Part shown: piece by piece, positions 12,001 through 15,000 of the stretch | Position numbering within the stretch: the first letter of the stretch is position 1 | How the letters are laid out: each line of letters starts with the position of its first letter | DNA from: a virus | Taxonomy: Duplodnaviria > Heunggongvirae > Uroviricota > Caudoviricetes | Direction: 5' to 3' (one strand) | Virus record (IMG/VR): IMGVR_UViG_646311923_000012 | Length of the DNA stretch: 64,000 nucleotides | Made by a program: the position numbers

Positions 12001-15000
12001 ACCAGGCACCGCATCACAAAATTCATTGTTGAGGACGCGATAATGGAAAAGTTATCATGTAATGCCAGCACGTCTGAACTTCGTTTCGAAATTGGCGTTA
12101 TCACTGGAGACAAAACATTTATTGAAGACGCCATTAAGCAGAGAAAACTCGAGCAGGACCTGTTAAATGAAGTATGCATTCCTTCAATGCTGGCTCGTCT
12201 GGACCTGCTGCAAAAAGGATATAAACAATGAATACAACATTTGCACTCGTTCTGACAGTTTATCTTGTTTCCGGCGAATCTCTTGAGCTGGTGACTGGCT
12301 TATACGGTTCAATGAAAGAATGCATGGCTGCAGCAGCAGAACAAAAAATTCCCGGTAACTGTTATCCGGTAGATAAAACTACTCACACTAATAATAACGA
12401 AATACCGGCAGGACTTTAAAACAGCACCGTAATTAATATCCGGTTTCATTTTTATATGCCAGCAATGGCAGGGATTTGTTCACCCTTAAATCTGTAATGA
12501 GGTTAAAACACAATGAGTAAAATCTTTATTTGCGCTGCTATTCCTGACGAACAGGCCATAAAAGAAGATAGCGCTGTTGCGGTGGCCACTGCCATTGAAG
12601 CCGGTGATGAGCGTCGCGCACGCGCAAAATTTCACTGGCAATTTCTGGAGCAATTCCCGGCAGCTCAGGACTGCGCTTATAAATTTATTGTCTGCGAGGA
12701 TAAACCCGGCATACCCCGCCCTGCCCTCGATTCCTGGGATACCGAATATATGCAGGAAAACCGCTGGGATGAGGAGTCAGCTTCCTTTGTACCGGTCGAA
12801 CCAGAATCCGATCCGATGAACGTCAATTTTGACAAGCTGTCCCCTGAAGTACAGAACGCAGTCCTGGTTAAATTCGACACATGCGAAAACATCACCGTTG
12901 ATATGGTGATTAGCGCACAGGAATTACTACAGGAAGACATGGCAACATTCGGCGGACATATCGTTGAAGCGTTGATGAAAATGCCAGAAGTTAACGCCAT
13001 GTATCCTGAACTTAAACTGCATGCCATCGGGTGGGTTAAGCATAAATGTGAGCCTGGCGCTAAATGGCCTGAAATTCAGGCAGAGATGCGCATCTGGAAA
13101 AAACGTCGCGAAGGTGAACGCAAGGAAACCGGAAAATACACGTCTGTTGTTGATCTCACCCGCGCCAGAGTCAACCAACAGAACACTGAAAACGCTGCTG
13201 AAAAAACCGGGGCTGTCACTGTTGCCATTCGCCGCGAATACAAACAGACATGGAAAACACTCGACAATGAACTGGCCTGCGCCCTCTGGCCCGGTGATGT
13301 GGATGCAGGAAACATTGACGGTACCATCCATCGCTGGGCGACAAATGAGGTTATCGACAAGGATCGCGAAGACTGGAAGCGTATCTCAGCATCAATGCGC
13401 AAACAGCCCGAAGCACTTGGCTATGACCGTCAGACTATTTTTGGCCTTGTTCGCGAACGTCCGATCGATATTCACAAAGATCCCGTTGCACTGAACAAAT
13501 ATATCAGTGAATACCTGACGACAAAGGGCGTGTTTGAACATGAAGAAACAGACCAGAGCTCTACTGATGCTCTCCAGCCGTCAGCAGCACAAACTGCTCC
13601 AGTGGAGACGGCAGAATCCGATACTCAAAAAAATGAAATCCTGGTGGAAGCTGAACCATCTGTAGAGCGTGAAGGACCATTTTATTTCGTCTTTACCGAT
13701 AAGGGCGGGGAAAAATACGGCAGGGCAAACAAACTTTCTGGTCTGGACAAGGCGCTGGCTGCCGGCGGTACCGAAATCTCAAAAGAAGAATATTTTGCCC
13801 GAAAAAATGGCACATACACGGGCTTACCGCAAAATGTGGATACCGCTGAAGATTCCGAACAATCAGAGCCGGTAAAAGTTACCGCTGACGAAGTAAACAA
13901 AATTATGCAGGCAGCCAATATCAGCCAGCCTGACGCCGATAAATTGCTTGCTGCATCACGTGGTGAATTTGTTGAAGGGATTAGCGACCCGAATGATCCG
14001 AAATGGGTGAAAGGGATCCAGAGTCGCGACGCTGAGGACCAGAATCAGCCCAACGTGAAACAAAATGAGCCAGAAGCGGAACAAAACAGCCCGGATACGC
14101 AACAAAACGGGCCAGAAGAACAACAACCAGAACCAGCAGTGCAACAGGAACTGGAAAAAGTTTGCACCGCATGCGGTCAGACCGGTGGCGGCAACTGTCC
14201 TGACTGTGGTGCGGTGATGGGGAACGCAACCTACCTGGAAACATTCGATGAAGAGAATCAGGCTGAAGCTCAGAAAAATGATCCGGAGGAAATGGAAGGC
14301 ACTGAACATCTGCACAAGGAGAACACTGGCAGCGATCAGTATCACGCCAGCGATAATAAAACTGGCGAAACAGCAAATCCCTTAATTAAAGTGAACGGTC
14401 ATCATGAAATCTCATCCACCAGCAGGTTGTGGCACCATCTGATGATTGACCTTGAAACAATGGGAAAAAATCCTGATGCCCCGATTATCTCAATAGGTGC
14501 AATATTTTTCGATCCGCAAACCGGAGAGATGGGGCCAGAATTCAGCAAAACTATCGATCTGGAAACTGCTGGCGGAGTCATTGATCGGGACACCATTAAG
14601 TGGTGGCTGAAACAGTCACGCGAAGCGCAATCCGCCATTCTTACCGATGAAATCCCGTTAGATGATGCACTGCTGCAATTACGGGAATTTATCGACGAAA
14701 ACTCCGGTGAATTTTTTGTTCAGGTCTGGGGTAACGGTGCAACTTTCGACAACGTGATTTTACGCCGTTCATATGAACGGCAGGGGATCCCCTGCCCATG
14801 GCGTTACACCAATGATCGCGATGTAAGAACGATGGTTGCTCTGGGACTGGTGATGGATTTCGACGCAAGAACGACTATTCCATTCGAAGGTGAACGCCAT
14901 AACGCTCTGAACGATGCACGTTACCAGGCGAAATACGTTTCAGCCATCTGGCAAAAACTGCTCCCGAGTCAGGCTGATTTTTGATGTTCAACCCATATCG

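Follow-up and report, generated by a model that had tools for sequence, protein, structure and literature searches.

What does a lambdoid prophage gain when the position equivalent to exo/bet in its early-left operon is held by one large gene, and what could the product of such a gene do? We wanted to answer this for a 64,000-nucleotide stretch of the virus record IMGVR_UViG_646311923_000012 (Caudoviricetes), hereafter the window, in which a preliminary description made from the sequence had pointed to a gene for an 823-residue YdfE-like protein with an exonuclease tail. In the open reading frame (ORF) list of the window, the gene runs from an ATG through its stop codon at 12513..14984 on the + strand, and a GAGG Shine-Dalgarno sequence can be read directly at 12499..12502 (+), 10 nucleotides 5' of the ATG. 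The 823 codons are uninterrupted, so that the gene is intact, as had been supposed. It is 100% identical to WP_000034468.1 ('exonuclease', E. coli O121 RM8352), and its product is matched over its full length by PHROG 2082. Copies elsewhere are labelled in RefSeq as 'exonuclease', '3'-5' exonuclease' and, many of them, '3'-5' exoribonuclease domain-containing protein'. At least part of the gene is present in 4796 of the 5426 complete E. coli genomes, frequently with several copies per genome, and a single match covers at least 80% of it in 3533 of those genomes. A tblastn search detected the exonuclease domain in 1569 phage records out of 50,697, and plaque-forming lambdoid phages, for example phage Tritos, carry the 823-residue gene too. 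Far from having gone unnoticed, the gene is already annotated, and it is very common in E. coli. The searchable literature (ydfE, Rv2179c with phage, PF16473, DEDDh with anti-defence) yielded no study of the protein in its full length. Read from the sequence, the product is a RecE-scaffold protein in which the nuclease has been exchanged for one predicted to have the opposite polarity, and which lacks an annealase partner.

The gene was also taken to be the full-length form of YdfE, and this is right: ydfE of the K-12 Qin prophage matches the first 766 nucleotides at 89% identity and is then cut by IS2. Relatives 79-95% identical over residues 1-345 carry the Pfam domains YdfE_N (PF27430) and YdfE_C (PF27432), both named after K-12 ydfE, in a precomputed table, and the 823-residue protein is assigned to these domains via such near-identical relatives and the K-12 ydfE alignment.

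The RecE-like scaffold and the C-terminal nuclease

To RecE of the Rac prophage, an architectural resemblance had been suggested. BLASTP aligned residues 262-625 with RecE 278-591 (E=3e-60), identity being near-complete from residue 473 through the zinc-ribbon motif, and hhalign aligned residues 163-337 with RecE 176-359 (probability 99.2%, E=1e-19), which makes the resemblance one of true homology. In these alignments, residues ~164-625 (~460 residues) are homologous to RecE 176-591, and only the first ~160 residues and the nuclease differ from RecE. The similarity stops at residue 625, which corresponds to RecE 591, where the PD-(D/E)XK nuclease of RecE begins. The NCBIfam RecE equivalog PRK09709 reaches 260 bits against a cutoff of 1269 and covers only residues 453-625 (model 446-602). 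Pfam gave no match to a RecE-type PD-(D/E)XK nuclease (PF12684/DUF3799-type) in the 823-residue protein, nothing in it matched RecE 595-866, and the N-terminal Exonuc_VIII domain (PF06630) was not found by the Pfam scan.

The C-terminus, residues 641-823 (14433..14981, +), is instead assigned by Pfam and by alignment with T4 DexA to PF16473, the Rv2179c-like/T4 DexA family of DEDDh 3'-5' exonuclease domains. The Pfam match spans residues 641-813 and model positions 1-177 of 177, with E=6.8e-66 and 221.8 bits against a cutoff of 27. Sequence and profile searches retrieved only two solved structures, 8KEL (E=5.9e-7) and 8KEN, which are those of T4 DexA (PMC12153337). The catalytic residues D7/E9/D119/H186/D191 of DexA align with D646/E648/D746/H796/D801: the Exo I D-x-E motif is formed by D646 and E648 within MIDLETMG, Exo II has D746 within NGATFD, and Exo III, H796-NALN-D801, has the H-x4-D form of the 'h' subtype. 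All five residues are invariant in 53 alleles of the gene, and across 110 diverse domains their conservation is at least 94%, the Exo II aspartate being kept in 108 and both Exo III residues in all 110. At the sequence level, the domain is catalytically complete. Both the DnaQ-like DEDDh domain proposed in the preliminary description and its point that the nuclease fold is not that of RecE, DEDDh PF16473 replacing PD-(D/E)XK, are thereby upheld.

The 53 alleles are the distinct 823-codon sequences from 55 viral contigs, phage Tritos and the window, and on them we calculated the ratio of nonsynonymous to synonymous substitution rates (dN/dS; pairwise Nei-Gojobori). The ratio was 0.08 for residues 1-215, 0.13 for residues 241-345, 0.06 for residues 381-440, 0.27 for residues 441-545, 0.19 for the zinc-ribbon segment and 0.12 for the DEDDh domain, while the three linkers gave 0.74-0.84 (0.74 for residues 346-380 and 0.79 for residues 576-640). 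Exactly 823 codons are kept in 55 of the 80 viral loci collected. Because dN/dS is 0.06-0.19 in the folded modules, which are thus under strong purifying selection, against 0.74-0.84 in the linkers, the protein consists of five constrained modules with spacers between them that evolve almost neutrally, and it is not a decaying relic.

Upstream of the nuclease, the chain begins with the N-terminal head (YdfE_N, residues 1-~160; 12513..12992, +), an alpha/beta subdomain and, after it, the first part of a helical subdomain, modelled with a predicted local distance difference test score (pLDDT) above 90 by AlphaFold (AF2). The head is not detectably homologous to RecE, hhalign homology beginning only at residue ~163, and no fold relative of it was found. 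The AlphaFold model of residues 1-345, made from a 31-sequence alignment (pLDDT 89), predicts, in this order, an alpha/beta subdomain, a helical subdomain, a disordered loop at residues 216-236 and a second helical subdomain. From residue ~164 to 345 (13002..13547, +) extends the scaffold body common with RecE, a helical YdfE_C module with the 216-236 loop, as delimited by hhalign, BLASTP and AF2. The YdfE_N and YdfE_C domains of near-identical relatives and dN/dS values of 0.08-0.13 bear out the conserved N-terminal region of the preliminary description.

After this body come an acidic low-complexity linker (residues 346-380; 13548..13652, +), recognized by composition, and a small, very strongly conserved domain (GPFYFVFTDKGGEKYGRANKLSGLDKALAAGG...; residues 381-440; 13653..13832, +), which falls in a gap of the RecE alignment. 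This small domain has no family assignment and is absent from Rac RecE, and it recurs in many scaffold relatives of all classes. Residues 441-545 (13833..14147, +) consist of a RecE-like conserved segment (DADKLLAASRGEFVEGISDPNDPKWVKGIQ), near-identical to RecE 452-515 and covered by PRK09709, and then of a Q/N/E/P-rich stretch. The zinc-ribbon-like CxxC-x7-CxxC region (residues 546-575; 14148..14237, +) is visible in the sequence and common with RecE C517-C531, and the acidic linker at residues 576-640 (14238..14432, +) contains the last RecE-similar stretch, the BLASTP alignment ending at residue 625. By composition there are three acidic, low-complexity linkers (residues 346-380, ~505-545 and 576-640), all with dN/dS in the 0.74-0.84 range, where one had been announced. 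The CxxC-CxxC zinc ribbon had been anticipated as well and is found at residues 551-565 as CTAC-x7-CPDC (C551/C554/C562/C565), with putative metal binding. Its four cysteines are invariant in the 53 Escherichia alleles and in Rac RecE. Since they are absent from every distant relative, the ribbon is a lineage-specific linker insert, common only with Escherichia RecE.

Annealase genes and the mosaic family

RecE is followed by an annealase gene, and we looked for such a gene here. None was found by annotation or Pfam near the 823-residue gene or elsewhere in the window, nor was any RecT-like sequence; directly 3' of the gene lies a DUF4224 excisionase-like gene (15052..15294, +; annotation and Pfam DUF4224 E=8.9e-9), so that there is no room for an annealase gene. 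None is annotated in the complete genome of phage Tritos, and none stands next to the DEDDh-type proteins of vB_EcoS-689R5 and two metagenomic contigs (loci L006, L008/L009). A search of IMG/VR with a single protein as query gave 80 loci, 72 of them with downstream DNA. In all 72, the integrase begins 262-345 bp past the stop codon, separated from it by no more than a small xis, and a RecT-like gene follows in none, so that the absence of an adjacent RecT/Bet-like annealase, claimed for the window, extends to 72/72 related viral loci. The upstream neighbours in the IMG/VR loci are DicB and YdfD, or KilR in three loci. On the other hand, a recT-family gene follows the scaffold proteins that keep the RecE-type nuclease in three cases out of three (Rac, L010 and L007; Pfam RecT E=2e-36 for the gene downstream in L007). 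The annealase disappears together with the nuclease swap.

The family around this scaffold is small and mosaic, a search of 1.84 billion cluster representatives with residues 1-345 retrieving only 174 proteins. In a local module classification, these proteins have two alternative heads, of the YdfE_N type and of the RecE Exonuc_VIII type, a common body, and alternative C-termini. Among the 68 representatives of at least 450 residues, the C-terminus was DEDDh in ~10, a RecE-type nuclease in ~16, a third domain in ~21 and unidentified in ~21; these tallies are approximate, as iterated jackhmmer merged the two N-module types and gave low-complexity noise for the P0245-type C-terminus. Both heads pair with both nucleases among the scaffold relatives: an Exonuc_VIII head is joined to an Rv2179c-like domain in P0254 and L006, and a YdfE_N head to DUF3799 in P0247.

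The third domain corresponds to PHROG 7838, labelled 'exonuclease', and has no Pfam match above threshold. Weak Rad52_Rad22 matches were nevertheless present in six of nine members (best E=0.0026), and by hhalign the profile of the domain is collinear with the N-terminal domain of human RAD52 over 116 columns, including all three core motifs (E=0.015; the human RAD52 sequence was checked against the PDB). A Rad52-like annealase fold is probable for this domain, and the PHROG label 'exonuclease' is probably wrong for the large sister class that bears it. Members of this class, with a YdfE scaffold and the Rad52-like C-terminus, include P0300, P0292, P0269 and P0327 (PHROG 2489/7838), and L011-type loci.

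The DEDDh domain also exists without the scaffold. True standalone 189-residue DEDDh genes occupy the pre-xis-int slot in Salmonella prophages; one of them (L094:6001-6570, a Salmonella enterica prophage) is a genuine standalone Rv2179c-like gene, the last before xis-int, downstream of YfdP, DUF2303 and a DndB-like gene, which places it in the same slot as the 823-residue gene within an unrelated early operon. Some E. coli entries of '180-183 aa' have another origin and are fragments of the long gene, produced by assembly gaps in the linkers with the ORF re-called from Met644. For example, the '183-aa 3'-5' exoribonuclease' P0183 on the E. coli contig JZOP01000123.1 (L098:737-3127) is the tail of a full-length gene that runs of N in the low-complexity linkers split into three called ORFs. 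Other E. coli entries starting with MIDLETMG are probably similar fragments.

Operon context and possible roles

Along the window, the gene order is a cI-like helix-turn-helix gene, relB-relE, ydfA, ydfB, a hypothetical gene, DicF, dicB, a ydfD-like gene, the 823-residue gene, an xis-like gene and int. The DicF small RNA (11806..11857, +; Rfam RF00039, 77 bits, E=3.6e-16) lies upstream in the same early-left unit. It is followed by the cell-division inhibitor gene dicB (12043..12231, +; Pfam DicB E=3.7e-38, and RefSeq annotation of a 99.6%-identical record) and, directly 5' of the exonuclease gene, by the ydfD-like DUF1482 gene (12228..12419, +; Pfam DUF1482 E=2.8e-19, and annotation). The tyrosine integrase gene (15272..16291, +; ORF list and annotation) marks the prophage end. 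Annotation and the Pfam matches of these neighbours confirm the exo/bet-equivalent slot between dicB/ydfD and xis-int given in the preliminary description, and the 823-residue gene is the last ORF of a dicBF/pL-type early operon before xis-int.

In K-12, the dicBF transcript runs from dicBp through ydfABC, dicF, dicB and ydfDE, is repressed by the CI-like DicA and was likened by the authors to that of lambda pL; an antirepressor or stress can lift the repression, which is also lost spontaneously in ~1% of cells without the dicBF operon (PMC10448788). Promoter and terminator scans around the gene gave matches at chance level. A short GC-poor hairpin with a weak T-run lies at 12457-12470 (+), within the 94 nucleotides that separate the ydfD-like gene from the ATG of the exonuclease gene; over the region scanned, shuffled sequence gave terminator-like matches at least as often. 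An internal start at Met644 was considered and rejected, as no Shine-Dalgarno sequence precedes this codon. Because the operon is repressed by DicA and nothing points to an independent promoter, the protein would be expected, by analogy with K-12, upon induction and not in the resting lysogen. A relB/relE-type toxin-antitoxin pair (9656-9847 and 9847-10134, +) is inserted after the cI-like repressor gene and before ydfA; it is absent from the equivalent regions of K-12 Qin and phage Tritos.

Positions 1-19195 of the window are 99.6% identical to E. coli O121 RM8352, and 19196-64000 are mosaic with respect to it; as the two are collinear in the first part only, the RM8352 annotation was used for 1-19195 only. 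A neighbouring prophage of RM8352 has its own 811-residue copy of the exonuclease, which is absent from the window. Directly after the integrase, from 16300-19200 and rightwards, lies the end of a second, tandem prophage. It contains a tail-fibre-assembly fragment, espK (17103-18464), which encodes a type III effector, and minus-strand tail-fibre genes. At 1229-2277 (-), a DUF968 gene of the nin-like region is frameshifted according to the RM8352 annotation, beside intact RusA and Q genes, so that the prophage is at least partly decayed, the exonuclease gene being intact nonetheless.

What could the protein do? We favour, at a probability of about 0.6, an early-lytic protein on a RecE scaffold, whose DexA/Rv2179c-type DEDDh 3'-5' exonuclease replaces the 5'-3' PD-(D/E)XK nuclease and trims or degrades ends independently of an annealase. 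On prophage derepression, the protein would be made from the dicBp/pL-type transcript, and its C-terminal domain would remove nucleotides from free 3'-OH ends by two-metal DEDDh chemistry. EcD ('HREX'; GenBank HAK9828821.1), an E. coli DexA homologue, degrades DNA in vitro, as does T4 DexA (PMC12153337). By analogy with T4 DexA and EcD, DNA is the most likely substrate, since these closest characterised relatives degrade it and since the other effectors of the scaffold act on DNA. The N-terminal scaffold, common with RecE and the probable Rad52-like fusions, would place the nuclease at DNA ends or at a partner used by RecE. As the gene stands in for Red/RecET cassettes at their genomic slot and has a scaffold in common with them, its most likely role would be annealase-independent trimming or degradation of DNA ends in phage development. 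Such an activity may serve recombination, repair or the processing of replication ends; it may also suppress 3'-tailed intermediates or destroy linear DNA that competes with the phage.

Several points weigh against this proposal. Rv2179c is an exoribonuclease in the Pfam description, and the substrate may be RNA. A 3'-5' exonuclease destroys the 3' tails used by RecA or annealases, so that a pro-recombination role is not obvious. A single-sequence AlphaFold prediction of the whole 823-residue protein reached a pLDDT of 34 and was unusable, providing no oligomer or DNA-binding model, and we infer the biological role of the full-length protein from its sequence only.

A broader proposal, which we put forward only tentatively, is that the RecE/YdfE scaffold is a general platform for DNA-end targeting or host-factor docking with interchangeable effectors. 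Temperate phages would equip such a platform with a Rad52-like annealase, with a DEDDh nuclease of 3'-5' polarity or, where RecT is present, with a 5'-3' nuclease. If true, the DEDDh version, present in most E. coli genomes, would be no mere RecE look-alike but would define an undescribed annealase-independent pathway resecting or erasing 3' DNA ends, by which phages could, for example, steer host recombination or eliminate rival linear DNA.

Anti-phage defence of the HREX type is an unlikely alternative to annealase-independent end processing. Here, the DEDDh domain would degrade the 5-hydroxymethylcytosine (5hmC) DNA of superinfecting T-even phages and protect the lysogen. Pfam places the domain in one family with DexA and EcD, and plasmid-borne EcD degraded T4 DNA and protected E. 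coli even when uninduced (PMC12153337). Moreover, the reported spread of 'bacterial DexA homologues' (Escherichia, Citrobacter, Klebsiella; PMC12153337) matches that of the 823-residue prophage family, the adjoining gene dicB also confers phage resistance (PMC6832061), and the gene is kept intact in very many cryptic prophages. The residues, however, do not follow. W152, with which DexA is proposed to read 5hmC, aligns with T766 in the 823-residue protein; the position varies among Y, W, T, C, R and H family-wide (Y 42, T 8, H 2 and C 1 in the 53 alleles), and the DexA D169 region falls in a gapped loop and is not alignable. Loss of the equivalent of DexA D90 was proposed as the source of EcD selectivity (PMC12153337). 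This tetramer-forming residue, A78 in EcD, is retained as D718 and invariant in the 53 alleles, although the correspondence is alignment-dependent. Furthermore, the gene is part of a lytic operon under repressor control, promoter matches next to it do not exceed chance, the same gene is present in functional free phages, PADLOC gave a weak generic DEDDh match only, and EcD itself is a short domain-only protein, known here by description.

Less probable again is that the enzyme trims RNA 3' ends as Rv2179c does, acting on phage or host transcripts, small RNAs such as DicF, or short oligoribonucleotides. Names speak for it, PF16473 being called a 3'-5' exoribonuclease domain by Pfam and many RefSeq copies being named accordingly, and the closest reported structural neighbour of DexA is the oligoribonuclease Rexo2 (PMC12153337). 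DicF, in addition, is matured from the same transcript as the exonuclease gene. But its processing is assigned to RNase E and RNase III (PMC10448788), the PDB match is to a DNA enzyme, DexA, with no Rv2179c chain retrieved even by profile, and the scaffold is common with DNA enzymes, RecE and the probable Rad52-like annealase.

We consider it slightly more doubtful still that the protein is an anti-defence nuclease, one that early in lytic growth would destroy host immune nucleic acids with free 3' ends (retron multicopy single-stranded DNA, reverse-transcriptase complementary DNA, linear signalling oligonucleotides). Lambdoid phages keep host-takeover and anti-restriction genes in the pL operon, and the early expression from a pL-type operon would fit, as would the fast module exchange, with at least four integrase types paired with the gene, typical of arms-race genes, and the fact that no partner gene is needed. 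However, the literature searches found no link of this protein family to anti-defence, and the scaffold points toward recombination-type functions.

Finally, a non-functional remnant in defective prophages, to which the truncated K-12 pseudogene ydfE and the frameshifted or split copies of several loci might point, is effectively refuted by the selection analysis, with an intact ORF in the window, exactly 823 codons in 55/80 viral loci, invariant catalytic residues, dN/dS of 0.06-0.19 in all folded modules, and the gene present in plaque-forming phages.

Relation to known systems

YdfE of K-12 is the same gene in the same dicB-ydfD context. Unlike the 823-residue gene, it is broken off by IS2 after ~255 codons and carries the annotation of a pseudogene; linker, zinc ribbon and nuclease, all three of which the 823-residue protein has, are missing from it.

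With Rv2179c of M. tuberculosis, which gave PF16473 its name, the protein shares the Pfam domain, matched over the full model length of 1-177. Rv2179c, which has been described as a 3'-5' exoribonuclease, is chromosomally encoded and stands alone, unlike the fused nuclease here, and neither sequence nor profile search gave a significant direct match to an Rv2179c PDB chain. T4 DexA belongs to the same family; the domain of the 823-residue protein is 27-29.5% identical to it and conserves all five DEDDh residues. DexA, however, comes from a virulent phage and is a standalone enzyme of 227 residues that has three extra loops, whereas here the nuclease is fused behind a 640-residue scaffold in a temperate phage.

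EcD is the only E. coli family member with both biochemical and phage-challenge data. It is a DexA-family protein starting at the Exo I motif, MIDTET, against M644-IDLET in the 823-residue protein, and it was expressed from a plasmid as a short domain-only protein, unlike the 823-residue one, in which the EcD selectivity residues, as described, are not matched. Judged by the A78 numbering, EcD is probably a member of the standalone subfamily with which the domain studied here shares ~59% identity. The EcD features IDTET or HS ending were in none of the retrieved family proteins, so the comparison is with its published description only; a 20-mer of the EcD reverse primer had one match, in an unrelated viral contig. 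These relations put the EcD/HREX defence claim in context, the closest-subfamily DexA-like domain in E. coli being normally the tail of a ~800-residue lytic-operon protein.

The nearest system is RecE, exodeoxyribonuclease VIII of Rac, which has 866 residues against 823 and occupies the same lambdoid early-left operon position. Its N-terminal region has a function that is unknown, is dispensable for basic activity and enhances linear-linear recombination (PMC11611040). The 823-residue protein could give a handle on the purpose of this large dispensable region and on DNA-end processing by lambdoid phages without Red or RecET, and its scaffold could carry alternative effectors for recombineering tools. 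Both proteins have the near-identical DADKLLAASRGEF...KWVKGIQ segment and the CxxC-x7-CxxC motif, and in both the catalytic module is C-terminal, behind a long N-terminal region (PMC11611040). Over the first ~160 residues, their heads are unrelated, YdfE_N in the 823-residue protein and Exonuc_VIII (PF06630) in RecE. The nuclease is a predicted DEDDh 3'-5' enzyme in the former and a PD-(D/E)XK 5'-3' enzyme in the latter, and while recT follows recE in Rac, the 823-residue gene is followed by xis and int.

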